Below, piece by piece: positions 1 through 54,340 of a DNA stretch of 64,000 nt. This DNA is from Glaucostegus cemiculus (lineage: Eukaryota). The stretch is taken from NCBI GenBank assembly GCA_976551045.1, contig CDPCPM010000015.1, positions 11,036,001 through 11,100,000 of the forward strand, given 5' to 3'. The translations under genes and the position numbers were made by a program. Under the pieces are notes generated by a model. It did not search any database and was not told where the DNA came from. It saw only the letters and a program-made list of their open reading frames with translations. How positions within the stretch are numbered: the first letter of the stretch is position 1; every line of letters starts with the position of its first letter.

Positions 1-124
1 TTGGCTCAACACAAAGAACTGCTGCAGCATTAGCAAGGAGAGCTAAACTCTGCCTGGATTCTAGCACAGAAGAGAATTTCCTGAAACACCGGACAATTGT
101 GCTCAACAAAGTGGGCTTACAAAT

Positions 125-225
125 TGAAGCAAAAAGCAAACCACTGGAGGAACTCAGAGGGTCAAGAGCATCTGTGGACGAAATGGGTAGTCAAAGTTCC
201 AGGTCGAGACACTGCATCAGTCCTA
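125..225 (-). mobile_element. Penelope-like element terminal-repeat fragment with degraded hammerhead motif
   Basis: Family signature ctggaggaactcag..ggtca..gcatctgtgga; reverse complement of ~190-222 reads gactgatgcagtgtctcgacctggaac. Confidence 0.6.
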
Positions 226-13330: not shown

Positions 13331-13384
13331 GATCAATATTTCGTAAATTAATTTTTAGGATCTAGACAAAGAACTGACAAAGCC

Positions 13385-14230: not shown

Positions 14231-14244
14231 GATGATTGAACTGT

Positions 14245-14510: not shown

Positions 14511-14744
14511 GCACACAACCTGATCAATCACCTCCCGGAGGCGTTCGGTGGTGCCACCAATGTCCAATCCCCTACCATCCACTTCACAGGGGCCATTACT
14601 GACCAGAAACAACTGGATCAGCCTCAGTTATCCTGGCAGTTCAGAAGGCTAGCATTTTTGAGTATCAATGTTCCTCCAATCTGAGTCAAAAACCTGGAAC
14701 TCTAAACTCAGCAGCACTGTGGGAGCACTCTAACTCCACCTCTT

Positions 14745-14880
14745 CCCCTTACCACTTTATAAGGCTATCTCCCCTCTACCCTTCCAGTCCCGATGATGTC
14801 TCGACCCAAAACATCGACTGTCCATTTCCCTCCACAGATGCTGCACGACCTGCTGAATTCCTCCAACATTTTGCGTTTTG
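14745..14880 (+). mobile_element. Penelope-like repeat with hammerhead-like motif
   Basis: cagtc-ccgatga-tgtctcgacc-caaaacatc-gactg (14785-14820), then ccacagatgctgc..gacctgctga. Confidence 0.7.
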
Positions 14881-15369
14881 ACTTTTAAGTGTTGGCCTTG
14901 TCTGTGACCCTCATGTCCTGCATTGAATTTGAAGTAAAAACCTCTCATGCAGGGAAATCGAAGTCTGGAATTCTTTTCCTCAAAATGCTGTGGTGATAAA
15001 TCAATGGATATATTCAAGACCAATTCTTAGATTTTTGTGAGCTTGTCAAGGAATAGAAAACAGAGGTGAGTTATTAACTTTGAAGTACAGATCTAGCATG
15101 AAATAACTGACTGGTAAACAGCTTCATGAGATTGACCGACCCATTCCTGTTCCTAGATGGAGAGAAATGGTTGCATTGACACATATTTCTGTCAACTGAA
15201 TTGGTTGAACAGTAAACATCTTCAGCAATGCATTTGATAATACTGATCCAGCTTCCTTGCACAATCGACCTCGATAATCCTCAGATAACATCACTGCCGG
15301 CTGTCCTCTTTCATTTAAAATGCATATATATTAAATTTAATAAAATGAGGACTGGCAGAACTGGTTGGA

Positions 15370-15840: not shown

Positions 15841-16519
15841 TTTACTGATTACTGGTGATATAATAATCACTGATAGAGGAACAATACTCATTTGATATCA
15901 TACGACATGCAGTGTTTGATGTAAAATGTCACACAATCAGTGCCTGTGGTCAGGATTGAACCCAGGTCTCTGGTGCCATAAGACAGCAGCTCTATTAGCT
16001 ATGTTGCCCTGGTGTTCACTCCCTGTACCATCACCTAACTCACTACCTCACCTCTGGGACTCCTGTGTCCAGTTGCTCCAAACCCCTGATCCAAGAATTT
16101 TTAGACGAATGTTTTACATGAATTAGCTAATAAATCAAGCATTAGACTTCAAAAGGCCTCTGACAAACAGCTGCAGTAGAGAAGGAGTGAGCATTTCCAA
16201 TTAACTGAGTTTATAAGTAAAGCACTTGCAGTGTTTATAATTCACTCATATTTTAATGTTTATAATTTTAATAGCTTAATTTATTTTCAATATTTAAATG
16301 AGTTATAAACATTACATATTAACATTTACTTATAAACAACTGAAAACATTATCGAAAACTCAGTGCTCTCTCTTCCCCACTCCTCTCCATTCAAGTGATG
16401 GGCTCAATGTTCCTAGTTGAGGGGAGTCCCGAACACTCTGCCCCTACAGGAGCTACATGCCTGCGGTATGGCACAGTTCCCCGGCAGATCTGTCTTCTAC
16501 ATGTAATAAATGTCATAAC

Positions 16520-16990
16520 AGGTGGGAAGAGGACCAAGCCTGTCAGCCCGTCAAGCCTGCTCTGTTATTCAATACAATCATGACTGAGCTGACATCCATC
16601 CAGCCCACTTTCCTGATCTTTCCCCAGAACTCTCCACTCCCTTACTGATTAGAAATCCACCTATCCCAGGCCTAAATATATCTAAGGACTCTGCCCCCAC
16701 ACTTCTCTGAGAGAAGCAGTTCCAAGGACTCGCAATCCTCTGAGAGAAGAAATTCATCCTCACCTCAGATTTAAATGGACCTCCCCTTTTTCTGAGACCA
16801 CACCCTCTGGTACTGCACTCTCTCATGACAAGAAACACCCTCCCAGCATTTACCTTGTCTGCACCCCCTAAGAATCTCACATGTTTCAATAAGATCGCTT
16901 CTCGTTCTTCTGAACTCCAATGAGAAGAGTCCCGTTCTGTCTAACCTTTCCTCATCAGACAATCCCTCCACTTCCAGTATAATCTTAGCA
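16520..16990 (-). mobile_element. CR1 3' fragment (second subfamily)
   Basis: ORFs LFSLEFRRTRSDLIETCEILRG and NFFSQRIASPWN. Confidence 0.88.
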
Positions 16991-17147
16991 AACATTTTGC
17001 AATGAAATAATCTTCCTCTCATTTTTGAAAGATTATAATTCATCATATAAGTGCAGGACTTTTGTTTTCAAAATTAAACACTTCTGCTTGTAGCTGTACC
17101 AGGACTGGAACTGCCAACTTCCAGTCACCTACTCCATTAATCAGCAC

Positions 17148-17535
17148 CAGAATCAGAATCTGAATCAGATTTATTATCAGTGACTTACATGATGTGAAGT
17201 TTGTTGTTTTGCGGCAGCAGTACAGTGCAAAGACATGAAAATTATTATAAACTACAAAAATAAATAAATAGTGCAAAAACAAGGAATAACAAGGTGGTGT
17301 TCATGGGTTCATGGACCGTTCAGAAATATGACGGCGGAGGAGAAGAAGCTTCTTCTTAATTGTTGAGTGTGGGTCTTCAAGCTCCTGTACCTCCTCCCCG
17401 ATAGTAACAAGGAGAGGGCATGTCCTGGGTGGTGATGGTCCTTGGTGATGGATGCTGCCTTCTTGAGGCACCACCTCTTGAAGATGTCCTCAGTGGTGGG
17501 GAGGGTGGTGCCCATGATGGAGCTGGCTGAGTCAC
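17148..17535 (-). mobile_element. Rex1/Babar-type LINE 3' fragment
   Basis: ORF CLKKAASITKDHHHPGHALSLLLSGRRYRSLKTHT; (AGAATC)n tail at 17148-17170. Confidence 0.9.
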
Positions 17536-17944
17536 CAGGGTCATCAGGCAATGATGGTTGATGAGAGAGAAGCTGGAGAAGGTACAAATTTCCTGTGAGG
17601 ACAAGAGCATAACTGAGGAACAGAATAACATCCTTCAGGATCAGTGAATGCAGTGCCACTCAGCCTGGGCAGCTGCTGAGCTTTCACATTTAACATCTAT
17701 AATCGCTGTTTCTAATTCCTCTTATCGATCACATTCTCTCTGCTCAGCCACATTATAAATGTGGCGTCTTGCTTGATGAGATTACAGTCTAGGACAGGAC
17801 AAAGTAAAAATGAATTTTAATTAAAAAGACTGAGTTAAAATGATATTAGAATATACTAATAGTTTGCATATCAGCAGGGATTTCATTGTGATCAATCCAA
17901 TATGTTCTCTATTACATTTTCTCCCAAGGTTTCTCAGTGTTCAT

Positions 17945-18615
17945 ACAGAACATAGAACATGGAACAGTACAGGACAGGACAGGCCCTTTGGCCCATGATG
18001 TTGTACCGAACTAATTAAACCAATGACTCCTAATTAATCTAATCCCTCTTCACCACCCATTGACAATGTCCCTTCCCTCTCTGTCTAGCCATGTGCCTCT
18101 CTAAGAGTCTCTTAAATGCTCCTGTGCTATCTACATCCACCACCACCCCTGGCAATGCATTCCAGGCACCCACCACTCTCTGTAAAAAAAACTTGCCCGC
18201 ACATCTCCTTTGTACTTTCCCCCTCTCACCTTAAGTACATGCCCTGCAGTACCAGATATTTCTGTCCTAGAAAAAAGATACCAGCTGTCTACTCTATCAG
18301 TGCCTTTCATAATTTTATGAACTTCTTTCAAATCTCCCCTCAGCCTCTGCTGCTCCAGAGTAGACAGCCCCAGCTTGTCCGACCTCTCCTCATAGCACAC
18401 GTCCTCCAAACCAGGCAGCCTCCTGGTAAACCTCCTCTGCATCCTCTGCAAAGCCTCCACATCCTTTCTGTAATGAGGCAGCCTGAACTGAATGCAATAC
18501 TTTAAATGTGGCCTAACCAGAGTTTTATAAAGTTGTAACATAACTTCCTGGCTCTTGAACTCAATGCCTCAACTAATGAAGGCAAGCCATGTGCCTTCTT
18601 TATCATCCTATCAAC
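17945..18615 (-). mobile_element. CR1 3' fragment
   Basis: ORF 18131-18541 LYKTLVRPHLKYCIQF..QRRFTRRLPGL..LRGDL. Confidence 0.92.
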
Positions 18616-19199
18616 AGGTGAACTAATTCTTTCAAACAATTTGAATCTTTTGTAACTCAAAACTATTAACATCATATTAATGTTCCTTAGGAAGTTCCTT
18701 GCAGTTTTAAATTCTGTACATTGGTTAATGTGAAATTTTATATTCTCCTTTGTATTCTCATCAAATGCAAAATGAAACTTTGTTTGTAACTTGCTTTGAT
18801 TTTTCATTAAAGTAAACCATCCTTTCAAAAGGTCACTAAACTCATTTTTCCTCCTTATATATTCCTTTCTCATCTCAAAAAGTCATGTTAATCTACATTC
18901 AGATGTTATTTGGTTCTTTCATAAAATTGGCCACTAATAATAACATTAAAGGAGGAAGAAGAGGTATAAACCAAAGTTGACCTGGATTCCCAATTGGCCA
19001 TTGAGGTTTCAAGATGAAGTGGAGACACCGACTCAGGGTGTGTGAGACCAGCAAAGGTACGTCAGTGGGTTCTGCTAAGGTACAAAGTGTTTGGTACATT
19101 ATACGGTGTCTATGGACTGCGGACTTCAGTGAACAGCAAGGGTAAAGCTTTGTATTTAAAAAATTAATTCAATTAATTACATATATTAATTCAGAATGA

Positions 19200-20150
19200 C
19201 ATAGCAGAGCAGGTGATGGATTGCAGCTGGAGTACACAGGAGCTGAAGGAAACCAGTGTGATCCATGGCAATTAAACCTGTAGTAAGTATCTGCAGCTTG
19301 AGGAACTGGAGCTGGAGTCTGAGACTTTGGCCCTGCAATGTATCTGGGGTGGAAAGTTACTCTTTGCTCCAAGAGCCAGTCACTTCCTTCGATTAAGTAC
19401 TGCAGAAATGGTCAGTCAAGATAGTCAGGAGGATATGATTACAAGTCAGGAGGGTATGGGTTTGCAAAAGGTATGAATGGAGGACTTTCAGCCCTTGCGA
19501 TTGTTCAACAAGTTCAAAGTTATTGCAGCCAATATGGACAGGAGTAGAATTCACAGGGTGGATGTGCTAACTGATCAAACCAGCGGTACTGAGGGACAAC
19601 CTCGTTTGGGAGTGTGAAAGAATATCGAAGGGATAGGGGTGTGGAGAGCCAAGAGGGTGTTTTGCTTCCTACAGCCGTGAGTGTGAATCCTGAGGCCTGT
19701 GTTGTCTGCTCAGGATTAAGGACAATATTGAAGTATCTTGGCGAGTCCTTGAATGGCCAAGCCATGCAAGGCTGGGGTATTGAGTGCCCAGATAAGGGAT
19801 GAGTAAAGGTGGGATATTTGATGATCAGCATGGATGTGGTGGGCTAAAGGGCCTGTTCCCATAGTCTGTGACAGTATGTCTCTACCTCCTCAGGACTGGA
19901 CAAGAGTCTGGCGTGAGAAGAGGGGTAAGAACCAATTGCTGTGGTCTATGTGGGAACCAACAACATGGATAGAAAAACAGAGGAAGGAAAAGCAGCGAGA
20001 ATCAGTATTCCCAAACAGAACCACAGAGGGATTAATCTCTGCATTACCAACTGAATCACATGCAAATTGGCTTAGGGTTAATAAGGTCAGAGAGTGAATG
20101 GGCAGCTCAAAGATTGGTGTGGGAGAAATGGATTTCAATTCATGGAGCAG
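19200..20150 (+). mobile_element. CR1 ORF1 relic (zinc finger/leucine zipper plus SGNH esterase-like domain), with a small tail insertion ~19690-19870
   Basis: EPIAVVYVGTNNMD at ~19929-19970 matches the esterase block VVxxGTND of CR1 ORF1p; QLEELEL-like heptads at ~19290-19320. Confidence 0.6.
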
Positions 20151-20224
20151 TGGTTAACTGCTCCATGGAGCAGTGATTAACTGGGAGTTAATAAGTATAA
20201 GAAATGTAGACTACAAGAGAAATC

Positions 20225-20515
20225 TAAGACATCTTTATTAGTCACATGTACATTGAAACATACAGTGAAATGCATCTTTTGTGTAGAGTGTTCTGGGGAT
20301 AGCCCACAAATGTCGCCATGTTTCTGGCACCAACATAGCTTGCCCACAGCTTCCTAACCTGTACATCTTTGGAATGTGGGAGGAAACCGGAGCGTCCAGA
20401 GGAAACCCACGCAGACACAGGGAGAATGTACAAACTCCTTACAGACAGCAGCCAGAATTGAACCAAGGTCACTGGCGCTGTAATATCACACTAACCGCTA
20501 CACTACCGTGCCTGC
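20225..20515 (-). mobile_element. Full-length tRNA-headed V-SINE with Rex-like tail
   Basis: Minus strand: A-box tagtgtagcgg, B-box ggttcaattct, V-domain, tail tttcactgtatgtttcaatgtacatgtgactaataaag. Confidence 0.9.
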
Positions 20516-20519
20516 TCAT

Positions 20520-22295
20520 AATCTGGTGAGAAATCTAAAAATAAACTGTGAAAGCTTCTATAGATATGCAAAGAGAAACAGGTTTTCAAGAGTTAATGGG
20601 GTCCCTCACACACTGAGGCAGGGAAATTGTACTGGGGGATAAGGAACCAGCAAAAAATATTAAGTAAGTGTTTTGTGTCTGTTTTCAAGGAAGAGGACAC
20701 AGAAACCCTTACAGAAATAGTGGAGATGATAGGTTCAGAGTACATGTGGAGCTGGAAGAAATTAACATTGGTGAAAAAAAGGTTGGTGGGATTGAAAACC
20801 AATAAATTACCACACCTGGAACATTATATACAGGTCTGCTCCCCATACCTAAACAAGAATATACTTGCAGTAGAGGGGGTGTAATGAATATTCATCAAAT
20901 CCTTTCTTTAGGGTTCTCCTGTAGGAGAGGTAGGCTGGCTGAGCCTTTACTGTCTTGGATTTAGAAGAATAAGAGGTGATTTCATTCAGGTGCTTGAACC
21001 CCTGTTGTTTGTCATCAATATTAATGATTTAGTCAGGAATGTTGGTGGAATGATTATAGAGTTTGCAAAATTGTTGGTATTGTGAACAGTGAAGAAGGTT
21101 GCCTAAGCTTACAATGGGATATAGGACAACTGAGAAAGTGGGCAAAGGAACAGTAGGTGGATCTTAACTCCGACAGTGCAAAGTGATGCACTTTGGGAAG
21201 TTAAACCAGGGCAGGGCTTACACAGTAAATGGCAGGGCCCTGGGGTGTGTCGTTCAACAAAAAGACCTAGGGTACAAGCACATAGTTCCCTGAAAGTGAT
21301 GACCCACATAGAGAAAGTGGTGAAGAAGGTGTATGACATGCTTGCTTTCAGCAACTGCAGCAATGAGTACAATAATTGATACGCAATGTAACAGCTGTAC
21401 GAAACGTTAGTTAGACCGCACTTGGAGTATTTTGTGCTGTTCTGGTCACCATCTCATAGAGTCACAGAGCATGGAAACAGGCCCTTCAGCCCAAATGGTC
21501 CATGCTGACCAAGGTGCCCCATTCCAAGCTAGTCTTATTTGCCAGCGTTTGGCCCATAACCTTCTAAACCTTTCCAATCCATGTACCTGTCCAACTGTCT
21601 TTTAAAAATTGTTTTTGTACCTCCCTCAACCACTTCCTCCGGCAGCTCATCCATATATGGACCACCCCTTGTGTAAAATAGTTGCTCCTCAAGCTCCTAT
21701 TGAATCTTTCCCCTCTCATCTTAAACCTATGCCCTCTAGTTCAGACTGAGTGCATTCACCCTATCTGTGCCCCTCATGATTTTATACTTGTCTATAAGAT
21801 CACCTCTTAGGAAGGATATAAATAAGATAGAGAGGGTGCAGAAAAGATCCACAAGGATGTTGCCTGGACTGCAGGGCTTGAGTTATAAGGAGAGATTAGG
21901 TCAGCTGGGGCTGTTTTCCCTGGAGCTAAGGAGGCTGAGGGGTGACCTTATAGAGGTTTATAAAATCATGAGGGGCACAGATGGTCATAGTATTTTCCCC
22001 AGGATAGAAGAGACTAAAACTAGAGGGCAAAATTTAAGGTGAGAGGGGAATGATGTAGGGAGTACACGAAGGGCAACTTTTTCACACAGAATGTGGTGGG
22101 TATATGAAACGAGCAGACAGAGGAAGTGGTAGAGGCCGGTATAATAACAATGTTTAAACAACAGTTGGACAGATACATGGATAGGAAAGGTTTAGAGGGA
22201 CACGGGACAAACACTGGCAAATGGATGGGCATCTTGGTCAGCATGGAAAAGTGGGGCCAAAGGGCCTGTTTCCGTGCTGTATGACTCTGCCACTA
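20520..22295 (+). mobile_element. CR1 ORF2 fragments (+) with a nested antisense CR1 3' copy at ~21455-21808
   Basis: The + copy breaks at ttctggtcaccat (~21452) and resumes taggaaggatata (~21808); the intervening sequence is a minus-strand CR1 3' end. Confidence 0.85.
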
Positions 22296-22359
22296 TGAAA
22301 CTTAGAAAATTCTTACGAGCATTTTTAAGAACCCTGTAGATGCAGAGATAATGTTTACT

Positions 22360-22451
22360 CAGTCAGAATCAGAATCCGATTTATTAACAGTGATATATGA
22401 TGTGGAATTTGTTGCTTTGCGGCAGCAGTACGGTGCAAAGACATTAGATAG

Positions 22452-22513
<62 letters not shown>

Positions 22514-22635
22514 GACCAGGTAGTGTTCACAGGTTCATGGACCATTCAGAAATCTGATGGCGGAGGGGAAGAAGCTGCTCCTGAAACATTGAGTTTGGGT
22601 CTTCAGGTTCCTGTACCTCCTCCTCGATGGTGGTG
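22360..22635 (-). mobile_element. Rex1-type 3' end containing a (GATA)n(GA)n microsatellite (22445-22510)
   Basis: Homologous to 17148-17410; tcagaatcagaatc tail. Confidence 0.85.
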
Positions 22636-22821
22636 CTTAGTTTCCACTCTGGACAATAGCAGTAGGATCTCCCTTTTTAAATAACTGTTCACAAGTGCAA
22701 TGGACACTTCAATTTATATGTAGCACAGGAAAATCAAAATACATTCAGAGCACTGACTTCCACAAATGTTGGTTGCTTCAGGTATATCTAAACTTTTGAC
22801 TAAATGTTGAGTCTTTTCTCC

Positions 22822-23130
22822 ACAGAGGGTCTCCAGGTAACCAATGGGTTCTGTTTTTACACATGTCCATAAGTCAATTTCGTCTATGTCAGAAAATAAT
22901 AAAAATCACTCTAAGGTAACCACACCTCCACAGTATTGTAATGAATGGCAGCAAATGCACATAAGACTGATAAGAAAGAACAATTACAGAAAGTGGAGAG
23001 AGGAAACTTGTTCTGCTGTTCATAGGAAGGAACTTATGTACACACATTGGACTTTTGAACGTAATATTATGGGAGCTCATTCATACATAGGAGTGTCTAC
23101 AAGTTGGGCATTTGTAACAGAGAGCCTGTG
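22822..23130. mobile_element. Putative Tigger/pogo-like MITE, degraded
   Basis: Imperfect termini cacagagggtctcc.ggtaac / gtaacagagagcctgtg, with internal cataagtc / acaagttgggcatttgtaac motifs typical of pogo-type MITEs. Confidence 0.45.
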
Positions 23131-24027
23131 ATTGCTCGCAGATTGTTTTGTTGACAAGCCATTGCTCTGGGCCTCGTGTACCCAAGGAGAACACACTGAT
23201 CTTCTTTTGCTCATGACTGACCATCTAGCTGTTCCAAAATGTTCTTTAGCTCCATCTGACTTTGCAACTTAAAAAATTTGTGACTTTTGATCTCTGTCAG
23301 GACACGTGAAAATACTGATATCTTGGCTGGCATTACGGAAGAGATGGTATCATATCAATCATGCTGTACAGTATCCAGTTCTATTACCTTCGACTAAGAG
23401 TAAATTAAGCTGCCAAAGTAATCACAGCTATTTTGCTCTACCACCCAAGGCAGATTTTAACCCAGTGTACCAACAGGGTTGCTTTCAATGTTTTACTCCC
23501 ATTCTTATTGCTGTTGTAATCCGTCAATACAAACTGTGTGAGTAAGTTTAAATGTGCACACAAGTTCTAAACAACAAGAAACTGTTTTCAATACTGCACA
23601 GGCTTTTTTTTTAATGAGAACCAACCCCCTTGAGATATTCTGTTCAAAACAGCTCTTCCTCCCCTGATCATAAACATATCAGTTTCTGCCACCAGGTGGT
23701 GGTAACTCCAAGCCATCTTTATGAACTTCCACGTGACAATGGAGGTTCTCCGTTGAATTGGAGAGGTACTCTTGTGCTTTAAGAATGCATTCACAGATGA
23801 GAGGTGAAATTATGGAATACTTTTGTATAAGTACTTCAAGGTGTATGTAGGCTAGAGCTGGAAACAATACTAGTTTTGAAGTAGACAAGTGATGTTGGGT
23901 TGAAGTTTGCTCTATGAGTTGAACCTCTATCGAGTTAAATGTCTATCAGTGTGATGAAGGCATTTCAGTTCAGCAGTGTTTTAAGTAACTCAAAGGCAGC
24001 AGTTTTAGAATTCCTCCAATAAACCAT

Positions 24028-24266
24028 TGGGGAGGAGGTACAGGAGCCTGAAGACCCACACTCAATGTTTCAGGAGCAGCTTCTTCCCCTCCACCATCAA
24101 ATTTCTGAACGGTCTATGAATTCATGAATACTACCTTATTATTTCCTCTTTTGCACTATTTATTGATTTTTGTAACTTACAGTAATTGTTATGTCTTTGC
24201 ACTGTACTGCTGCTGCAAAACAACAAATTTCACGACATATGTCAGTGATAATGAACCTGATTCTGA
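24028..24266 (+). mobile_element. Rex1-type 3' end
   Basis: ggggaggaggtacaggagcctgaagacccacactca...cctgattctga, same as 607-846. Confidence 0.9.
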
Positions 24267-24289
24267 TAAAATAACAAGATAGTATATAC

Positions 24290-24610
24290 AAACTAGGAGC
24301 AGTTGTGGATGCTTGGCCCTTCCAGCCCACACTGCTATTCAAGACAATCATGGCTGATCCGATCGTAACCTCACCTCAATGTTCCCATTTAACCGAGGTA
24401 AGCTTTAACCCCCTCATTTATCAAGAATCTATCTACCTCTGCCTTTAAAAACATTTAAATACTCTGCTTCCACAAAGGGCAGTGGAACTTTCTTCCTCAA
24501 AGAGAATTGCAAAACTTCAAATTCCACTAAGGCAAAAAAAACCCGCCTCATCTCTGCCTTTAATAGGCAACTCCTTGTTTGTAAACTGTGATTCCATAGT
24601 TCTAGATGCT
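24290..24610 (-). mobile_element. CR1 3' fragment, old
   Basis: aggagcag..ggcccttccagccc..attcaagacaatcatggctgatc..aatctatctacctctgcc. Confidence 0.7.
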
Positions 24611-25114
24611 TGGATTCAAATCAAAGGTTTACTGCACAAAAGAAAATCAACCTAAATGTCAACATATATAGCATTTAAAAAAAACGGAATTGTTTAAAAG
24701 GACTATATTGAAAGTTGGCAAAGAAAACCAGCAAAGGACTTTATAAAAGTAGTGAGCAGATAAAGAGTTCATTTGTTAAGTTCAGGGAAGAAAGAATATT
24801 GGATATTCCAAAGGAATTCTTTCCCTCAGTTTTCACACCAGACTAGTGGGTTAAACAGTAGGAGGTAGCCCACCCAGGTAGGGTAATTACAGAAAAGGAT
24901 ACAGCACCAAAGGCATTGGTAGGACTCGGGGAGGCATGCATTCGAGAACTCTGAAGCACGTTAGAGAGGAAATTGGTGAGGATCTGACCACAATCTTTCA
25001 AACAGTGTTGGACATGGAAATTGACAATGGGCCAATTGGTTAACATGAAACACTTTTCCACCAAGCTGGACCTAACAGTTAGAAACAATTCCCTCAGTTG
25101 AACCATGATTCTGT

Positions 25115-25310
25115 TCAATGAAGAAAAGGGGAATTCTCCCTGTCTGGACTATCATCTTTTGGTACTAGTTAGTCATTAATATAATTTCCATTGGTGGCAA
25201 TTTTCTTCCCGCAAACTGGAGGCTGTGTTTCCCTATTTTAAAGCAACTAGTACACTTTGAAGCTAATAATTAGCAGTCAAGCTCAGCTAGATTGTGAAAG
25301 ATGTGATCTA
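25115..25310 (+). mobile_element. DeuSINE 3' half, degraded
   Basis: gaagaaaaggggaattctccc..gcaaactgg.ggctgtgtttccc..gattgtgaaag. Confidence 0.5.
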
Positions 25311-26399
25311 ATTCCTTCATTTTAGCTTTCTGTTCAAAAAAGAAATAACCACTGGTTGGGTTAAATGAAGTTGGTAAGCATCTTATGGTAAAAAATGTGG
25401 TAAATTTAAACAAATGGATAAGGATTAACTAAACACGGATTAAGATTAAGACAGCATGGATTTTGAAAAGGCAAGGAATGCTTAATAAATGCATCAAATT
25501 ATTTGTGAAAATAATGGAGTTTATTGAGCAATGAAATGTAATGGATGCTGCATACATGGTTTTTCAAAAGATCATTTGACAGGGTACCACATGAAAGATT
25601 GGTGATTAAATAAAAACATTAATGGGATTGTGATGGCACAGATTAGAAGCTGGTTAAATGTCAGAAAATAGACAGCTAATTAATGTATTTGCAAATGGAC
25701 AAATGTAAAGTGTTCACCTAATAGACTAATACAGTTCAATCTTGGTAAAAGGGAGCAATATAAAAGATGTGAGAATTGAGAGCCTAAAAAAGTGTGAAAA
25801 GTATGTAACCAAGAGGATATCCAGAGGCTAACAATTCAAACGGATAAATATCATTTGATATTTGACAAAATTAAATGCAACGTGATGCATTTTGCAGGAA
25901 GAGGAAGTGTATGTATGCACTGAGTGATAAAACTTCAAAAGATGCAGAAAAACTTGGTTCAAATATATGAAACTCCAGAAATTTCCAAAGCTGTAACAAA
26001 ATATATCAAGGATTCCTCAGGCTTCACAAACAGGGAAACAGAATAAAAAGCAAGGAGGTGGTACTGAAGCACAGTGGGTTGTAGACGGAGACATGATCAG
26101 CAGAACTATATTGTGCTGGGGTTTCTCACCAATACTTTGCAGGCATAGGAGCTAGGGACAGGTGTACCATTCCCCCCCCCCCCCCCAGAACAGCGTTACA
26201 TCGTTACATCTCCAGGATCCAATTTAAATCTTAATTTGTCTGTATCCTCCACAAATGGAATGCGGGGAGAATAAAATCGGATTAGTGTCGGATTAGTGTA
26301 ACTGGGTGTTTGATGCTCGGTGCAGACTAGCCAGGCCGAAGGGCCTGTTCCTTGCTGTCTGACCCCACGGCTCACTGACTCACTGACTTGCAACATGCG

Positions 26400-27650
26400 G
26401 TGTTTTATTTCAAAACGTCTTTGCTTAGCCAGGCTGCTGGTAAATCGCCCGGTGGCACTGAGAGTGGACGCCTGTTGATCGGAGCAGGTTGGAGAGCCGC
26501 CGGCCAGGTGCACGGGTACCCCTGGGTGCATGCAAAAGCGCACAGTTCCCAAACACAAACAAGCTGCATTGAAGCTAAATATTTAACATAGAACTGAACT
26601 AAATTTTCACTTTTAAATCTCCCAGTGACAAATTAACACCACCACTGTAATTACAGGTAATTGGTATCAACAACACAATATTACTTCAAATATAAACGAA
26701 CTTGGAGTCTTTTAAAAACTAAACAATTTATTTCCTCTGGGTTTTGTCCTTCACTGTAACCTACGAAAAATATTCGGGTGTCAGTGGATGCCGGGGGGAA
26801 CTTGGGGCAATTCTGCCCAGAATAAAAATTCTTTGCTGCCGCGACGTTGCCGGCGGTTTGTGAATCTCTGTCTCTGTGTATCCCGAAGCGGTAGATATCT
26901 CGGTGAATAATTTATTCGTGTCTGCTGGCAATCTCTGCTCGCCCCCGAGGTCTCCAGCCGCCGCAGACGTGCTGTCTAGTTTTGTTGAAGCTTTATTACT
27001 GGCAGGTTAGTGAATCGAAAGTGCGGACAGCCTCCGAGTGCCGAGCTGGAGTTGAATGCCGTGTTGCAACTGTTGTCGGCAAATCCCCCGACCTTCCCCG
27101 GCGAGACAGCAGTCACCTTGTGTCGTCAACCATGGGTGGCCAAACTGCACAATTATAAAAAGAAATGATTTGCTCTTCTGCATTTCTTTTGTGTTAATAA
27201 CAAGAATTTATATTTCAAAATTCAAGGAGCCCCTACAAAATGCAATTTAAGATCAGTGTCCCTCTTTTACCTCCAGTGAGAACCTTCCCGCCGGGGGTTT
27301 TGGTGTAGGGGCAACACCCAGGCCTGGAAATTCATGGGCTCGTTTAAAAATAGAGGCGCAAAATTGGCGCTGCGCAGGGAGCTTTGCGCCCGGGTGCCCT
27401 GGCGCAACGGGTGTGCGTTAAAACGCGGGTCATCGCCGGAGCGCAGGCACCTGCTGAAACCCACCGGTGTGAACTGACTTCATTCCTCGGCCTCCCGGAG
27501 GGGCGATGGACCTACGAGCTGCGGGAGGAGGCACCCAAGTCACAGGCACCCCCCTCAACATCTTCTTGCAAGGGGCGAACACCCGGGGAGCGGTGTATGG
27601 GGGGGGGCGAGCAGAGAAAGCCCGCGGGGGCAGGAATGAAGTGGCTGTGG
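26400..27650. promoter_or_regulatory. Distal CpG-rich island with TAAT-rich cores (candidate enhancer or alternative promoter)
   Basis: Dense CpG in non-repetitive sequence; gtaattacaggtaattgg at ~26647; candidate donor CAG|GTTAGT at 27005/27006. Confidence 0.5.
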
Positions 27651-28159
27651 GTGGGTGTTGTCAGAAACCTCGCCAGTGTCCCTGGACCCTGGTCTGACTG
27701 CTGCAAGGAGTTTTGAGTGGTCTGTGGGCGTGACAAATCCACAGATTGAACCATTGCTCCAGCATTCACATGTACACCTCACACTTTCCAAGTGGGTCTA
27801 GCTATTCAACTGCAATGGGCATACCATGCGCGCACATTCCTGCCTCTCTCTTGCAGGACAAGGTGGCACCCCACTACTGCACGGGGCAGCAGACTGGAGG
27901 GCCACAGGCCCTGTCATTTTAGGGGCATGTGGCAGGTGCCCTGGTCACCCCTGAACCACTGGCCAGTTCCCACTTGGTTTGTGTGCTCCCTGTGCTTTGT
28001 GGATAGTCACATCTCAGACACAGAATGGTGACATCAGTAGCTCCTGGTGCACCATGTCACGATTGTCTTTCAGCACTGATTTTACACAAGGAACCATTTA
28101 CAAACCATGCACTAACGACTGAAATCAGATCAGCCTAAATACTCTGAGACTGATAAGGC

Positions 28160-28520
28160 TGAGAGGTGATTCTGGTTACATTCAGAAGATTCTGAAAGGG
28201 ATTGACAGGGTAAATGCTGATGCTTTTCCAGGCCAGGAAATCAAGATCCAGCCTCTGGACAGATACCCACCTCTGACTAACATGAGGAGAAATATCCACA
28301 TTTTGGAGGGTTGTGAATCTTTGCAATTTCCTACTTCAGATAATTGTCAAAGTTGAAGCGTGTAATGTATTCATGGCTGCAAACTGATCGATTTTTAGAC
28401 ACTGCGGGAACCATGAGACATTGTAATTGGGCAGAAAAGTGGATTTGAGATATAGGGTCAGTCTTGATCATATTGATTGCTGTAGCAACCTCAAGGAATC
28501 ATGTGACCTTCCCCTGCTTC
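28160..28520 (+). mobile_element. Old CR1 3' fragment
   Basis: gaggtgat..ttgacagggtaaatgctga..gagggttgtgaatctttgcaatttcctac. Confidence 0.65.
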
Positions 28521-29189: not shown

Positions 29190-30330
29190 GACCTTGCAAC
29201 ACACCCCCAGCAGGTGCAAAATCCTCAGTGCCATGTGGTGCAGACTGCATTACCTCATCAATTGAAGACAGCGACTGGTGCCAGAGGAAGAGCAGCAGGA
29301 GGACCCAAAGCCTGAGGTGGAGTCTGCAGAGCATCAGGAGGAAGAGGAAGATATGCAGGGGTTGTCTCTCCCTGGTACTCACAGCCTCAAGTCCCAAATG
29401 ATGGAGGATCCAGCATTGACCACACAGGATATCAGGCACTCACTGACAGGGAGCCTGCAAAATAAAATTCCCAAGTGCAAACCTCCATGTATAACAGTCC
29501 CTAGCACCAATAAATTGTATCAATAAGCAACTGGGAGAGCCCAGATGATGCATAGAATCCACTGACAGGCTGCTGTGCAGGTCCACCTGCACTAAATGAG
29601 TCCCTGTTCCAATCACTCTACTGACAAAAAGCAACATCTCTGCATTTCCCACTGACTAGCACCTCACCTTTAACAAACTCAGACCTCCACATAAAATACA
29701 TTTTCTGTGAGGTCCATGGAAGATGTGAATAATGGTGAGCCAGTTATTGTGACACACCTTGTAATAACATGTTGAGAAATATGTTTAAGCATTGATATTG
29801 GTATTGGTTTATTATTGTCACTTGTACCGAGGTACAGTGAAAAACTTGCCTTGCATACTGATCGTACAGGTCAATTCATTACACAGTGCAGTTACATTGC
29901 GGTAATACAAAGTGCACTGATGTAGTTCAGGTAAAAACAAAGCAGTACAGAGTAAAGTGTCACAGCTGCAGAGAAAGTGCAGTGCAATAAGGTGCAAGGT
30001 CACAACAAGGTAGGTTGTGAGGTCAGAGTCCATCTCATCATATAAGGGAACCATTCAATGGTCTCATCACAGTAGGGTAGAAGCTGTCCTTAAGTCTGGA
30101 GGAGCCTGAGGGCATGTACCACCAGTCTTAAGGCCAGCTTCTACCCCACTGTGATAAGACCATTGAACAGTTCCCTTACACATTCCATGTACAAGGGTCA
30201 TCGCTCCTGGTGGGGACTTCTGTAGCCATCTCTTTCCAGGCTCTTCTTAAGATGGGCCCTGTGGGTTTCCCCATAGCTTCCCTTCTCCCCCAAGACACAC
30301 AGAGGTTGCTCGTGGTCTTCCCCTTTGAGT
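29190..30330. mobile_element. PIF/Harbinger DNA transposon relic: transposase C-terminus (+, ~29194-29465) and Myb/SANT-like gene (-, ~30180-30330)
   Basis: + frame LQHTPSRCKILSAMWCRLHYL*..EEEQQED..EEEED..IRHSL resembles HARBI1-type LQYSP..CCxLHN plus acidic tail; - frame RRAWKEMATEVPTRSDDPCTW resembles the Myb/SANT AWxEVA..RTW motif; convergent orientation. Confidence 0.6.
29792..30178 (-). mobile_element. Rex1-type 3' end (CCAATA-tail family) with a terminal inverted duplication
   Basis: Homologous to 43715-44036; the + oriented piece 30100-30178 folds back on 30043-30099. Confidence 0.88.
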
Positions 30331-31930: not shown

Positions 31931-32394
31931 GTAATGCCAGTATGTCTGCGTCAAAGTTGTAAGGTTGTTTCAATGAGGCTTGCCTGACCTTGCTGCTGAA
32001 GTTGACATCTCTCTTTTCCACGAGGGTGCCCCTGTTTCCTACAGCCTCCTCTGCTGCTGCCTCCAACCTTCACCTTATTGCCCTTGCCACTCCTCCACCA
32101 CTCACATCAGCGTTTACTACCACACCCTCTGTTGCCATTGACTACCACATTCATCTCCCCCACCTCCATTGCTAAAGGTAATTAGAACACAAAAAACGCA
32201 TTTCTTGCATTATAATGATTGTATTTACAATAGACTTACCTGTTCTATTGAGGAGTACTAACCTGCCCCCAAAACTTGAAATGATAATCAATCATTCACA
32301 CTGCTTTACCAATGGCACTAAAGCTCATCACTGTCCGGATTCATCATCAAGTGGACCTCCTGGGCACTCATTAGCAACATCACAGAGTAAAACC

Positions 32395-32600
32395 ACTAAC
32401 TGCTGGAGGAACTCAGTGGGTCGAGCAGCATCTGTGGAGGCAGAAGGATGGTTGACGTTTCAGGTCAAGACCCTGCATCAGGACTGAGAGTGGAGAGGGG
32501 AGATGGCCGGTATGAAGTGGTGAGAGGGAGGAGTGAGACAGGGGCTGGTAGGTGATAAGTGGAATCAGGGATGTGGGTGATGATGGACAAATGGATCCAG
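32395..32600 (-). mobile_element. Penelope-like repeat with hammerhead-like motif
   Basis: Minus strand cagtc-ctgatgc-agggtcttgacct-gaaacgtc (32449-32488). Confidence 0.75.
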
Positions 32601-34894
32601 AAGCCTACTACGTTTCCTTTTAGTGTTCTATTACCACACCTCCTTCACATCCATTTTTGTGGTATCCCTCAGGTATGCTCACTGATTATACACGTGTACT
32701 GGATTTTGTAAAGTGTTGACAATCCTTGGCACCCCTGCATAGTATAATAGCTTAGAGACTGCCAGTGAGTGGTATACCAACGGGAAAAAGTGACCAGAGC
32801 TCAATCCATGAACCATCTCTGTCCCCAGGTGGGCCATAAGATGGTTGGAAAGACATAGAATTGGGCTCAAGTGTCGCATTAATGGAGCTGACCAGGTGAT
32901 GTGACGAGAACATACATGAAGTAAGTGTGTTAATACAGATCATAAATACTGTATTTAAGATCTGCTTTACCACACTTACTTCATATATGTTCTTAAATAT
33001 AATTGACTCAGCCCTGTCACTTCTTCATATATGTACTTAAATATTTCTAAAATGTACTTGACTTCTGTGGAGCTACAACTCGTGCTCAGGAACAAAGCTG
33101 GCATTATTCACTGGAGCTCTCCCAGCTGAAGTATAACAGTGCTCATTCTTTTAATCTGTGCGTTGGAAGCCAAAGGGGAATCCAAGAGAATCTCTGTGTA
33201 TTCTCAACTTTGAACTCCTGGAATGCCGAGACAATGAGAGACGCGCCATGGAGCTGTGGCAAAATTGGGATTTAAGAAAGAATAATGTCTCTGCTATTCC
33301 AGCAATCCATATCCCACCACAATCCTGCCTGTGGCTGACAGTACAAATGTAGATTGTGTGTCTGAGTAGGTTCTGCCTTCCTACAGGTTTGCCTATGTGT
33401 CTTGACCCTATTTCTGCTAACAAGCTTTCTTGCATACAACTGTCACCTCAGGGTGAGCATTTTTCACCTTGCCCTCAATATTATCATTTACCTGGAAAAA
33501 GCAAAATGTTAATGTACGAATTAAAGGGCAAAGAGGAAATGTTCTCTTTTTTAATCAAAACTTCTAATGTAATAGGAACATAAGATACACATTTCTTACA
33601 TGATAGTGATGACATTTACTAATAAAATTGCTTGCAGTGTGTGAGGAGTACTGATATGAAATGATTCTGATTCTGATAATCAATTATTCACACTCTGTAC
33701 CAATGGAAGGTAAACTCATCACTTTCCTTAACCATTGTCAAGTAGTCATTCCAGGCACTTGTAAACACCATCACAGGAATCAGCTACTTTCCTTTTTACT
33801 GTTCTATTGCTTAGTCATAGACTCAGGGATTTCCAATATACCTAGTCTGGCACAGCGTTGCCATTTTGTTTGGTCTACCACTCTCACAATTATGATGAAG
33901 ACTTTTACTTCAGGTCAATTTTGCACATGCTACATATTTTCCCCTTGCTCTGGTCCTTAGCTCAACATGATTGAGGGCTATGAGGATCTGATGCAGAGGT
34001 CCAGGGTAGAGCCTTGATCATATTGAATAGTAGGGCAGGCTTGAGGGTTTGAGTGGAGTACACCTGCTCTTGTGTGTTCCTGTTCTGACTGATCATCAGT
34101 TTTCTAGACCTGCCCTACCAATGCACAACAACTCAGTCACTTTTCAGGCCATAAGGGAGCCTGTCTCCTCTGGGCATTCCCAGATTCCAGTGGAGACTAT
34201 TTACAGAGTGTGCAGACAAATACTCATCAAACACAAGGAGCTCAAAATAAAGTGAGTCCCATTTATTCAAGAGATTTTCTCAAACTGCTTCTCTGGGACT
34301 TGACTTTGCTGCAGCCCAGAGAGCAGTGTCAGATGCTACAATCCTTAAAGAAGTAACAGCCTTAAAGCAGCAATTTTGTTTGCAGACAGTGTTACGTATT
34401 TTACATGACTCTTTCCCAATGGCCTCACCAATTAACTTTCACTCAAGTACTGACATGATTTCCTTTTGAAACACTAACCAAGTCTGCGTCCACCACATAA
34501 ATACATATTATGTTACCTCAGCATTATGACAGTTCAGGTAATGGGCATTCACCCTTACAAAATTCACAATTCACGACCAAAATATCTGAGATACAGGATA
34601 AAAATGTACTCTTTTGGAATTTATGTGAGGAAAATACTAAATAGATACAAAATGCAAAAAACAAGCAAATTTTCTCTATTTTTGTCGAGGGTTCACTGTG
34701 CAGGAAATTGTGATGTGGATGGTTTTCTGGGAATACAACCCCCTGAAATGTGGGAGTGTACTGTAATAAATTCTGGGTCATCATTCTCCATTTAGGTTTT
34801 TCGTCACATTCTCCCATATCTTTTGTCCTTCACTTTAAAACAGTATCCTTTAGCCTTTGAAACCCATTTTAGCTACCTAAACCCGTTATGCACC

Positions 34895-35175
34895 TGGAGA
34901 TAAACGAGGCTGCAGGTGCTGCAATTTGGATCAGTCCTGATGCAGGGTCTTGACCCAAAATTCCTCTCCCCCTACAGATGTCGCTCAAGTTGCTGAGTTC
35001 CTCCAGCAGTTTGTTTTCTTTTTGCTGTTAAGGTCCTGTTCTTTTCTGTCAAATCTCCTCTCTACCTTCAAAAAGCAATTGCTGGAAATCTGAAACAAAA
35101 CTTGAAAATGCTGGAAACACACAGGTGGTCAAGCAGCATCTGTGAAGAAAGAAAAATAAGTTTGCATTTCAGACC
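34895..35175. mobile_element. Cluster of Penelope-like repeat pieces in both orientations
   Basis: cagtcctgatgcagggtcttgacccaaaa at 34932-34960; ctggaaacacacagg..gcagcatctgtg at ~35110. Confidence 0.7.
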
Positions 35176-36280: not shown

Positions 36281-36739
36281 TTTTAAAATGTTTATTTATT
36301 ATTTTTATTTGAGGAAACTGTTGACTCTGTAGGGGTAGTTATTATAGAAAACACACCCATCTGCCCATTATTAATAGGAGTCCTGAATGTTACATGTCCT
36401 CAGTTCAATTGAATCCACATGATCCAATGGTTTGGTTAGCTAGAATCCTTTCACCTCTTTAAAATAACGAGTATGCAGTCGTCACGTTTCAGTGAGGCAA
36501 AATCATGTTCTTAGTTTCTGTTGATGACCAAATATGCAAATTCTGGAAGGGAGAGTCTGGCAGATGTGCCTGAATTACCAGTGAGGTTGGGTGATCCATG
36601 GCGGTGAAACATGGACTGTTAAGCTGCCAAGAAAGAAAACTTGACGGCTTCTGGCTGAAGTCCCCTGCATTCTTTTGCATCTTCTAAAGGGAAATGTTTC
36701 CAGGGATACCAAGCATCATTAGGCAAAGAAACTCCTCCC

Positions 36740-37182
36740 CCACCAGGTTCCATCTGCCCATCACCTACATATTGGTCCCCTGACTCCTCCAGTCCCCGCA
36801 CTGTTCTCGTCTGCCTAGCATCCCTTCCTTATCTGGTTTTGCTCATTACCTTCCTTCTTATCAGATTGCATGATCTGTTGCCCCCACTATCACCTCCCAG
36901 CCTCTGTTGCCATCTCCACCCCTCCCTCCCCCACCTGACTCCATCTGCCAATCACCCTGCCTCACCTGGATCCACCCATCGCTCGCCTGCTCCTGCCTCA
37001 CCTCTCCCCCTCACCTCTAGATACTGCCTATCTCCCTTTTACACTCTCAGTCCTGATGCAGGGTCTCGACCTGAAACATTGATTATCCCTTTGCCTCTCC
37101 AAATGCCCCCTGACCTGCTGAGTTCCTCTGGCAGTTTGCTTTTTGCTCCAGATCCCAGCATCTGTAGTTTCTTGTGTCTCCA
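36740..37182 (+). mobile_element. Longest Penelope-like terminal-repeat copy, with hammerhead-like motif
   Basis: Pyrimidine-rich 5' part, then cagtc-ctgatgc-agggtctcgacct-gaaacatt (37048-37080), ending ccagcatctgtagtttcttgtgtctcc. Confidence 0.75.
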
Positions 37183-37714
37183 CAGCAGACTCTGAAGTGA
37201 GCAAGTACACAAGATGAAAGATGGCTGCATCTCCAACGATCCACTCTAGTGGGAGATGCCCCAGGATAAAGAACCAGTGGTTGCCTAGATCTTCATTTTA
37301 ACTGTATTACTGAAAGGGATATGAAATCCTTCATCATTGATTATGATGTAGGAAACTGTAGCCAATGGCAGAAATGAATGGAGACAGTGGCTATGGGCAG
37401 GGTCACCTATCAAAGCCCCATTGTGGATGCCAGTGAAATGAGCAACATAGATGCTCAGAAAGTAGACATTACAGGTCAGCATCTTAGACCTAACTGAGAG
37501 TTTACTATTTCTCCATAATTTTTGTGTTTAAAGTCAACATTGATGGCTTCCTTTCCAAAGAATGTATTGAGTTCTTCATGAGTCTATATAGACAAATCCA
37601 ATTCATAGCAGATATATGCAAAATAACTAGGCATCAAAAGCAGGTCCTTCCCAGCCTGAATCATTGAACTGATCAGCCTTATCTGGGCTAGCTCAGGAAA
37701 GGTTCCTAATGATG

Positions 37715-37920
37715 AGATAACACAGAAAGTGCTGGAGATACTCAGCAAGTCAGGCAGCATCTGTGGAGAGAAAGAAACAGAATTAACATTCTGCTGGATG
37801 GTCATTGACTGGAAATGTTGATTTTGTTTTACTCTGCAGAGATTCTGCCTGATCTGCTGCATGTCCTGGCATCTCCTGGGTTTATTTCGAATTTCAAGCA
37901 GCTGCAGTATTTTGCTTTTC
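37715..37920. mobile_element. Penelope-like repeat, degraded inverted pair
   Basis: gctggagatactcagcaagtcaggcagcatctgtggag ... ctgcctgatctgctg. Confidence 0.6.
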
Positions 37921-38429: not shown

Positions 38430-38997
38430 AAACCACACAGAAGGAGGCCATTCAGCTCACTAGGTTCATGCCAGCTCACAGGAGAGCAATTCCATCATCC
38501 TATCTATCCTCTCCTTATTTCTTGTGCCCCTGCATCTTATTCCCTCACACCCCAGAGGGCGATCCGAATATGGAACGAGCTGCCAGAGGAAGTGGTTAAG
38601 GAAGGTACATTAACAACATTTAAAAGGCACTTGGACAAGTACATGGATAGGAAAAGTTCAGAGGGGTATGGGTCAATCAGGTGAATGGGACTAACTTAGA
38701 TGAGAATCTTGGTCGGTATGGACCTGTTGGGCTGAAGGGCCAGTGTCCCTGCTGTATGACTCCATGACTCTATGACGTACCCATCAAATCCCCTTTCATT
38801 CCTTTTGCCATTTACCTACACCAAAGATTAATTAACAGTAACTGATTGACCTATCAGCACAGCTTTGGAATGTGAGAGGAAACCGGAGCACCCGGAGGAA
38901 ACCCACACAGTCACAGGGAGAGCGTGCAAACTCCACACAAACGGCATCTGAGGTCAGGATCAAATCTTAGTCCTTGGCGCTGTGAAGCAGCAGTGCT
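38430..38997 (-). mobile_element. HE1-like V-SINE interrupted by a CR1 3' fragment (+, ~38550-38775)
   Basis: V-domain gtgggtttcctccgggtgctccggtttcctc on the minus strand; tail gctgaatggcctccttctgtg; internal CR1 ggaacgagctgccagagg. Confidence 0.8.
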
Positions 38998-42857: not shown

Positions 42858-44036
42858 AACTACAGCTCTGCCTTCAATATAATTATCCCAAGCAAACTTG
42901 TCACCAAACTCCGAGACCCTGGACTCAACACCTCCCTCTGTAAATGGATCCTTGACTTCCTAACAAACAGACCGCAATCAGTGAGAATAGGCAGCAATAC
43001 CTCCGGCATTATTATTCTCAACACTGGTGCCCCACAAGGCTGTGTCCTCAGCCCTCTACTCTACTCTCTATACACTCATGACTGTATGGCCAGATTCTGC
43101 TCTAACTCCATCTACAAGTTTGCAGATGATACCACCGTTGTAGGCCGTATCTCAAACAGCGATGAGTTGGAGTACAGGAAGGAGATAGAGAGCTCAGTGG
43201 AATGGTGTCATGACAATAACCTTTTCCTCAATGTCAACAAAACAAAAGAGCTGGTCATTGACTTCAGGAAAGGGGGTGGTGTACATGCACCTGTCTACCT
43301 CAATTGTGCTGAGATCAAGAGGGTTGTGAGCTTCAAGTTCCTTGGAGTGAACATCACCAACAGCCTGTCCTGGTCAAATCATGTAGATGCCATGGACAAG
43401 AAAGCTCATCAGCACCTCTACTTCCTCAGGAGGCTAAAGAAATTAGGTTTGTCCCCTTTGACTCTCACGAACTTTTATCAATGCACCACAGAAAGCATCC
43501 TATCTGGATGCTCCATGGCTTAGTACAGTAACTGTTCTGCCCAGGACTGCAAGAAACCACAGAGAGTTGTGGACACGGCCCAGCATGTCATGGAAACCAG
43601 CCTCCCCTCCTTGGACTCTGTCTTTATCTTTTGCTACCTCGGTGAAGCAGCCAGCATAATCAAAGACCCATCTGGGTCATTCTCTCTTCTCTCCTCTTCC
43701 ATCGGGTAGAAGATACAGGAGCCTGAGGGCACGTATCACCAGACTTAAGGGCAGCTTCTACCACCCACTGTGATAAGATTATTGAACGATTCCCTTATAG
43801 GATGAGATGAACTATGACCTCACAAACTACCTTGTTGTGACCTTGTACCTTATTGCAATGCACTTTCTCTGTAGCTGTGTACTGTTATTGTTTTTACCTG
43901 TACTACATCAATGCACTCTGTACTAACTCAAAGTAACTGCACTGTGTAATGAATTGACCAGTATGATCAATATGCAAGACAAGTTTTTCACTGTACCTCG
44001 GTACAAGCGACAATAATAAACCAATACCAATACCAA
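42858..44036 (+). mobile_element. 5'-truncated Rex1/Babar LINE with reverse-transcriptase domain
   Basis: [41 protein letters not shown]; premature TAG at 43521-43523; (CCAATA)n tail. Confidence 0.95.
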
Positions 44037-48204: not shown

Positions 48205-48300
48205 TGCAAGGGTCTTCGACCTGAAATGTTAGCTGGTTCTCTCCCCACAGACGCTGCCTGACCTGCTGAGTGTTTCCAACATTTTCTGTTTTTCTTTCAG
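48205..48300 (+). mobile_element. Penelope-like repeat piece
   Basis: agggtcttcgacctgaaatgtt..ccacagacgctgcctgacctgctgag. Confidence 0.65.
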
Positions 48301-54129: not shown

Positions 54130-54340
54130 AATCAAAGACCTGCGGATGCTGGAAATCCGAAATGAAAACAGAAGCTACTGGAAACACTCAGCAGGTCAGG
54201 CAGCGTCTGTGGAACGAGAGTCCAAGTTAATGTGTCAGGCAGAAGACTCTTCATCAGGACTTGACCCGAAACATTAACTCTGTTTCTCTTCCCACGGGTG
54301 CTACCTGACCTGCTGAGAGTTTCCAGCGGTTTCCGTTTTG
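54130..54340. mobile_element. Penelope-like repeat, inverted pair joined at the hammerhead motif
   Basis: Left arm carries gtcctgatgaagagtc on the minus strand; right arm starts gacccgaaacattaac. Confidence 0.7.

Follow-up and report, generated by a model that had tools for sequence, protein, structure and literature searches.

Natural C9 core variants of a minimal hammerhead motif mark Penelope-like element subfamilies in Glaucostegus cemiculus and may have spread from uncut RNA

Introduction

The minus strand of a 64,000-nucleotide stretch of Glaucostegus cemiculus DNA (the window, analysed at its full length and numbered from its first letter) carries at 32449-32488 a short segment that reads as a minimal hammerhead ribozyme, with the core box CUGAUGC in place of the canonical CUGAUGA. 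Does this C at position 9 belong to one decayed copy or to a whole subfamily of elements, and is it a change that the ribozyme core tolerates or the mark of a lineage that amplified without self-cleavage? The original prediction had left the last choice open.

Results

The motif at 32449-32488 and its copy

Read from stem I onwards on the minus strand, the segment consists of the stem I 5′ arm (32482-32486), the catalytic box CUGAUGC (32475-32481) with C rather than A at position 9 (32475), an extra A between positions 9 and 10.1 (32474; this base and the stem I 5′ arm were read from the letters), a 5-bp stem II with a 2-nt loop (32462-32473; arms 32473-32469 and 32466-32462), the block of GAAA box (32461-32458), CG palindrome, U16.1 and C17 (32454; whole block 32454-32461), and the stem I 3′ arm (32449-32453). 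The 5′ ends of short copies pile up at the stem I 5′ arm. Core, stems and palindrome thus follow one another from 32486 to 32449 in the order expected of a minimal type I hammerhead, as had been proposed. Stem III is formed by the CG palindrome in a dimer only, and the predicted cut lies between 32454 and 32453 (numbering after PMC4209133). The GAAA box, U16.1, H17 and a palindrome at 15.2-16.2 are found in this copy and in the family majorities, and so is the additional nucleotide that separates 9 from 10.1, which minimal hammerheads of Penelope-like elements (PLEs) are known to have (PMC4209133). The CUGANGA box is absent from this copy and from subfamilies C3, C2 and C1, and is present in A1, A2, AAGA and the old families (these names, like U4A below, are labels of this analysis).

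The motif pattern matched 4 times in the window and not once in 50 simulated windows. The covariance-model scan of Rfam that had been suggested as a check gave 16 matches at E values up to 10 and no hammerhead family among them, a miss that may be expected for a motif form without stem III.

The copy itself is degraded, as had been anticipated for individual copies. Position 1.1 is A, against the G of the subfamily majority, so that the core-adjacent pair of stem I is broken. The stem II closing pair 10.1-11.1 is G-U, where G-C is commonest in C1 and C2, and CpG decay is its likely origin. Judged from its letters, the copy is likely to be a lone decayed insertion and inert. It lies in the 5′-truncated 3′ end (3′ UTR and part of the pLTR) of a Neptune-type PLE of subfamily C2, without coding sequence, at 32385..32603 on the minus strand. 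This copy is about 210 bp long, with approximate ends; its best blastn matches among endonuclease-linked C2 elements are 79-82% identical to it across roughly 32403-32600, and it was assigned to C2 from its downstream sequence alone.

A conserved block downstream of the motif (32401..32434, minus strand) is predicted to fold into a small hairpin and the 5′ arm of a 9-bp helix, whose partner arm is absent from the 32449-32488 copy. The block differs between families at 1-6 of 33 positions. It also occurs at 37013-37188 (+), and the 9-bp helix is predicted in C2, C3 and A1, the changes between families keeping wobble pairs. We regard the block as a candidate protein-binding or reverse transcription (RT)-start element.

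Other copies and repeats in the window

A profile search found 17 pieces of the PLE repeat in the window, which holds no endonuclease match. All seven motif copies that had been listed are present, and CUGAUGC does occur in four of them, with cores at about 220 (−), 32481 (−), 34937 (+) and 37053 (+). These are a short C9-bearing C2 copy beginning at the motif (120..224, −), the copy described above, a short C9 copy that also starts at the motif and is devoid of the cleavage site (34931..35027, +), and a longer C2 copy (36732..37188, +) with its C9 motif at 37048-37085. The remaining three come from other groups: the copy at 14785 belongs to the A9 group and carries deletions (14724..14886, +; 2 nt are missing where stem II begins), and those at 48205 and 54225 belong to older families, the former with a decayed core (48205..48295, +), the latter in an inverted pair of old-family copies (54157..54340) whose minus-strand core is canonical. 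An A1 copy at 51998-52170 (+) has lost its core box and stem II to a 19-nt deletion. At 9532-9649, 37719-37862 and 54157-54340, ends of this PLE repeat face each other in head-to-head inverted pairs.

The window contains several other repeats. An AT-rich inverted repeat at 32905-32995 gives weak matches to miRNA precursors (best E 0.17, far under the gathering score). The two arms of an inverted repeat pair, 29792-30076 and 43764-44036, show 89-91% complementarity and are younger than the other repeats. Another many-copy repeat, at 1502-1969, 5268-5736, 15334-15836, 21808-22286 and 38544-38761, looks like what we take to be the 3′ end of a CR1-type LINE. Tandem repeats occupy 7873-8016 (16-nt unit), 58097-58479 (14 nt) and 59170-59403 (39 nt). 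Outside the window, a 76-80-bp stretch of one sampled locus (L291:3720-3800) is 99-100% identical at five other places, and is thus a young repeat.

The host element

Neptune-type Penelope-like elements carry the motif, a minimal hammerhead, at their 3′ end. Long copies, A9 and C9 alike, continue upstream into a decayed GIY-YIG endonuclease, with the motif about 250-600 nt downstream of it in linked copies, that is, in the terminal-repeat location. One C9 copy (L181) can be aligned to A9 copies along 2.2 kb and has reverse transcriptase motifs, a C-x4-C-x2-C linker and the endonuclease, which supports the link to Penelope-like reading frames on which the original prediction depended. The same linker, an instance of CX2-5CxxC, is found in L181, L184 and L054. 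A piece of the reverse transcriptase region has 33 homologous proteins, most of them annotated as reverse transcriptase (RVT_1) and 5 also as GIY-YIG, the best, from a shark, at 51-52% identity; protein neighbours of the element come also from a skate. The decayed piece itself gives RVT_1 at E 0.082, which fails the cut-off. Similarly, the Pfam GIY-YIG profile reaches E 0.0039 for an A9 copy, again failing the cut-off, and gives no match for a 96-aa C9 piece; the GIY-YIG motif is nevertheless visible in the majority sequence of every family.

None of 8 long loci, all of them 5′-truncated, shows a pLTR-ORF-pLTR tandem or a 5′ repeat. Inverted 5′-truncated partner copies occur at L188 and at 54157-54340 in the window, and opposite-strand joints are seen as well. 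Copies in the window are dispersed and longer copies enter an open reading frame, an arrangement that does not fit a retrozyme. The order of reverse transcriptase, linker and endonuclease is that of Neptune or Nematis, the linker being common to both clades (PMC8557442), and ‘Neptune-type’ is accordingly a label by layout rather than a phylogenetic placement against Nematis. Locus L135 (about 1500-2350) combines an A1-type endonuclease with an AAGA-type motif and tail; it is likely a recombinant or a nested insertion.

C9 and U4A as subfamily traits

Pattern searches covered the whole genome of 2.85 Gb. The exact motif pattern with any base at position 9 had 1,047 matches, against 0 for the reversed-pattern control; position 9 was A in 72, C in 27, U in 1 and G in none of the first 100 matches listed of the 1,047. 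The exact C9 pattern had 716 matches, again against 0 reversed-pattern controls. When 30 loci were picked for an endonuclease resembling that of a C9 copy, 27 proved to have the motif, and in these, with the query excluded, position 9 was C in 25 of 26, U in 1 and A in none. Conversely, 28 of the 30 loci chosen with the endonuclease of an A9 copy had the motif, with A in 27, G in 1 and C in 0. When copies were sorted by downstream sequence only and gaps were excluded, C9 was found in 23/24 C1 and 32/38 C2 copies, and A9 in 19/20 A1 and 68/78 old-family copies. C9 therefore tracks both the endonuclease and the downstream sequence, and the change is subfamily-level, as had been suspected from four copies. 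Of the two forms proposed for it, the substitution A9C agrees with the unchanged length; an inserted C before A9 survives only as a structural reading.

A motif-blind sample of 1.18 Mb (the window together with 112 10-kb stretches of larger contigs, 6 of these stretches lying next to the window) contained 203 copies: old 90, U4A 34, C2 24, A1 18, AAGA 15, C1 14, A2 6 and C3 2, the U4A and A2 counts being mixed since the two are not separable by downstream sequence. The C9 subfamilies make up 40 of the 203, and extrapolation to the genome gives roughly 96,000 C-family copies, a rough figure. Endonuclease-linked copies number one for A2 and four for AAGA.

The sister subfamily U4A, which the original prediction does not mention, has the core CAGAUGA and an intact 5-bp stem I, with 1,646 exact genome-wide matches and 0 controls; A9 is kept in 98 of the first 100 matches listed of the 1,646. 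It has its own endonuclease (example loci L241, L247 and L271-L290).

Stem I pair 2.1-1.1 is U-A in the old families (44/64 listed copies) and C-G in the others, a two-sided change between families that speaks for the predicted stem I; in the present copy the pair is broken. The 5-bp stem I proposed for the motif holds for the A9 families, but not for the C9 families, in which it has 4 bp (C3 and part of C2) or 3 bp (C1, where the fourth pair has been lost to A opposite A in 38/43 listed copies). The short stem is no proof of lost cleavage, because in the canonical-core AAGA family stem I also has 3 bp and a mismatch. Only 5 of 40 C-family copies keep the remaining core bases together with both closing pairs.

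Selection, age and branching order

The endonuclease of the C9 subfamilies has a dN/dS of 0.09-0.14. Uncorrected dS among the C9 families, 0.37-0.72, is inflated by CpG noise, and CpG-masked counts were used instead: with CpG columns masked, pairs of C9 subfamilies differ at 15, 22 and 26 of 103 third positions and at 5, 8 and 13 of 191 first and second positions (Fisher p 3e-4 to 8e-6). Such purifying selection on the coding region implies that the C9 lineages were autonomous for a long time. Over the motif segment, C3 and C1 differ at 1 of 27 non-CpG positions, compared with 26 of 103 third positions (p 0.004 by a binomial and 0.015 by a Fisher test), which rejects free drift of the segment.

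Across C3, C2, C1, U4A and A1, 3 of the 27 non-CpG motif positions differ, namely position 4, position 9 and one wobble-compatible base of stem II; N7, the extra A and loop II are invariant. The stem II change between subfamilies, from C-G to U-G, keeps pairing. In C2, U4A and A1 the monomer is predicted to fold into a rod that leaves positions 4 and 9 unpaired. Because positions free of a catalytic role are frozen and two catalytic ones have changed, we read the selection as non-catalytic; on these alignments, the motif segment stayed under selection, and catalysis was probably not the target.

Age was approached through non-CpG divergence from the family majority, which is 0.187 for the old families (135 copies; a mixed group, so that the value is inflated), 0.135 for C3 (2 copies), 0.126 for U4A (44), 0.121 for C2 (34), 0.121 for A2 (5), 0.118 for C1 (25), 0.081 for A1 (31) and 0.065 for AAGA (17). 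The variant cores are intermediate in age between older and younger canonical families. No young copies were seen, the best between-copy identities being 86% or less. Contigs of other organisms pass from unique flanking sequence into the 32385..32603 copy, on both sides in three of them and on one side in a fourth; since these flank junctions are common to them, the insertion predates the split of those organisms.

In a tree of 111 rows without an outgroup, the C9 copies form one branch (100/91). With the old families as outgroup (70 of 183 rows, a random subsample), the order is old, C3, C2, then C1 against U4A+A2+A1. A single U4A clade is rejected (p 0.0025, or 0.0008 after masking of CpG), so position 4 returned to U at least once or a few bases were exchanged. 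A single C9 clade is not rejected (p 0.24 and 0.40). Joining the old families with A1+A2 is rejected by likelihood (p 0.004; p 0.021 with AAGA added), yet favoured by site counts (15 versus 6 sites; 16/16 old copies). Given this conflict on the root, a reversion at position 9 is possible, and no more. An import of the A1/A2 motif from the old families is unsupported, as the A1/A2 motif and flanks match U4A and not the old families.

5′ ends and RNA data

With search anchors excluded, the 5′ ends of 120 of 364 copies lie no further than about 10 nt from the first base of stem I. This pile-up coincides with inverted junctions in four other organisms (32481-32489 in the coordinates of the present copy, the region of the stem I 5′ arm). 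Among C9 copies, 31 of 87 end at the motif start and 6 of 87 near the cut site. Copies with an end at the pile-up hold the whole motif, and their templates were uncut, in variant and canonical families alike. Ends near the cut site number 23/203 in canonical and 9/154 in variant families (p 0.09, not significant), a comparison confounded by mixed old families and inverted pairs. As the canonical families share the uncut 5′-end pile-up, the footprint cannot tell cutting from non-cutting families.

There are no RNA records among the listed holders of the stretch. Raw RNA-seq reads of a relative include 10,947-28,359 repeat reads per run, on both strands, with almost none on unique flanks. They show no pile-up of read ends or starts, and libraries of this kind may not show cleaved ends. 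In one run (X23), about 3,000 reads lie on 32398-32487 with one shared loose end at 32487; these reads come from a single abundant host transcript in the relative, holding a copy that starts at the motif.

Two other uses of the region were considered and rejected. A splice acceptor (downstream of the motif, where a pyrimidine tract ends with CAG) loses its AG in AAGA and some A1 copies, and the changes there keep the predicted 9-bp helix. Protein coding from the ATG of the core is excluded by frames that close early and differ between families.

Discussion

We favour, with a probability of roughly 55%, the reading that the C9 core marks several protein-coding PLE subfamilies that spread from uncut RNA, because cutting by C9 is predicted to be poor or absent. 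Activity was low after single changes in the CUGA turn (PMC9901934), and no cleavage rate measured for A9C together with the extra A was found in the literature. If C9 cuts poorly, the elements would have spread from uncut RNA, and the 35-nt segment would owe its retention to a role, other than catalysis, that it plays at the 5′ end of the element RNA, possibly as a rod-like hairpin bound by an element protein or as internal-promoter sequence. Transcription would start near the first base of stem I, a reading of the 5′-end pile-up for which Drosophila Penelope, with its internal promoter, is the model (PMC2377424). The short copies would then arise when reverse transcription begins at an internal site some 100 nt further downstream. 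Short copies from uncut templates fit what is reported for Anolis, where a PLE remains able to insert in vitro with its hammerhead mutated and mainly uses uncut RNA as substrate (PMC11167929), and the success of Naiad PLEs, described as having high copy numbers and no canonical hammerheads (PMC8557442). As a counterpoint to poor cutting, however, C3, U4, G5, A6, G8, G12-A15.1, U16.1 and C17 are kept in every C9 subfamily. This kept core includes unpaired bases that would be superfluous for a rod, and it also fits a working ribozyme. The evidence leans towards amplification without efficient self-cleavage, self-cleavage itself being a prediction from sequence.

The kept bases are also what speaks for a core that tolerates the change, the extra A serving as A9 and C bulging after G8 while cutting persists, likely with the aid of a protein. 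We hold this possible, at a little better than one chance in four. C3, C2 and C1 have all retained stem II, the palindrome and the cut site as well as the other core nucleotides, and the sole stem II change still pairs (C-G to U-G). The Anolis PLE hammerhead needs protein to cut (PMC11167929), and natural core variants whose activity is low but real exist, with C3-G8 covariation, A6C and insertions (PMC3088659). Such tolerance would nevertheless leave unexplained both the parallel U4A subfamily and the frozen state of the catalysis-free positions. From hammerhead chemistry, C9 could pair with G12, the general base, and the C1 core box can form a competing hairpin in the predicted dimer. In a viroid, moreover, C at the extra position is strongly detrimental (PMC3705267), although the order there is A-C and not C-A.

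We consider it doubtful that the segment is kept as DNA only, as initiator and downstream part of an internal promoter, with RNA structure irrelevant in the C9 lineages. The motif start resembles what we take to be the initiator consensus, and the clustering of 5′ ends at the first bases of stem I (120/364 copies in the flanking 20-nt bin pair) would suit a start site; the internal promoter of Drosophila Penelope does have an initiator and a downstream promoter element (PMC2377424). Against this, the sequence, judged by eye, resembles a downstream promoter element only poorly, the RNA reads of the relative show no pile-up of starts, and stem changes fixed in subfamilies within the 35-nt segment preserve pairing. 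That C9 is chance decay of single copies, or a dead motif drifting in a non-autonomous repeat, is very improbable. Most single copies are indeed broken, as the 5/40 intact C-family cores illustrate, but decay would hardly give the skew towards A and C at position 9 (72 and 27, with U 1 and G 0, among the first 100 matches listed), nor make C9 track its own endonuclease type and flanks, nor conserve the motif segment between subfamilies. At the subfamily level, the endonuclease linkage and the segment conservation already refute it.

A more far-reaching reading, which we put forward tentatively and at odds of about one in three or a little less, is that C9 and A4 are two unrecorded natural states which the core went through, with ~100,000 copies each, before it became canonical again in the youngest families. 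This would mean either cutting that was still protein-assisted or self-cleavage lost and regained in one autonomous lineage.

The 32449-32488 locus is ordinary debris with no sign of function, and its value lies in the subfamily series to which it leads. The role of the hammerhead in PLEs is treated as an open question in the literature (PMC8557442, PMC11167929). Here a single genome holds the 35-nt segment in three matched natural forms, one with the canonical core, one with C9 and one with A4, each in an autonomous subfamily of high copy number, and this series bears on whether PLEs need self-cleavage or whether the core tolerates changes thought disabling. Should the C9 and A4 states still cut with an element protein, the known hammerhead core would be widened. 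Minimal hammerheads in PLE repeats are already known (PMC4209133); natural C9 and A4 core subfamilies appear to be new, going by a search of the literature (figures and subscription papers lay outside it) that found no record of A9C or U4A hammerhead cores or of elasmobranch PLE hammerheads with them.

The closest known relatives are the minimal hammerheads of metazoan PLEs (Cervera and De la Pena 2014, PMC4209133), which, as described in the text of that study, are likewise type I, without a stable stem III, with a palindrome at 15.2-16.2, an extra nucleotide at 9/10.1 and a location in PLE terminal repeats, mostly as single dispersed copies. The core variant described there is U3-A8, whereas here whole subfamilies have C at position 9, another has A at position 4, and stem I can be as short as 3-4 bp. 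For Neptune-clade EN+ PLEs, canonical hammerheads are stated to be universal (Craig et al. 2021, PMC8557442); here, in contrast, abundant autonomous subfamilies are non-canonical. The Anolis Poseidon element PAc (PMC11167929) shares the hammerhead in the pLTR, insertions from uncut RNA and the lack of RNA-seq ends at the cut site. Its start codon lies inside the motif, whereas here the frame from the ATG closes within about 20 codons and AAGA lacks this ATG, and its hammerhead mutants were engineered, whereas C9 and U4A arose in nature. The natural variants of the hammerhead core in Perreault et al. (2011, PMC3088659) are alike in combining core changes and insertions with reduced activity; the passages of its text considered here give no change at position 9. 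Non-LTR retrozymes (bioRxiv 10.64898/2026.07.22.740005) also carry a type I hammerhead derived from PLE pLTRs, but they are described as tandem and non-coding, unlike the dispersed ends of coding elements found here.
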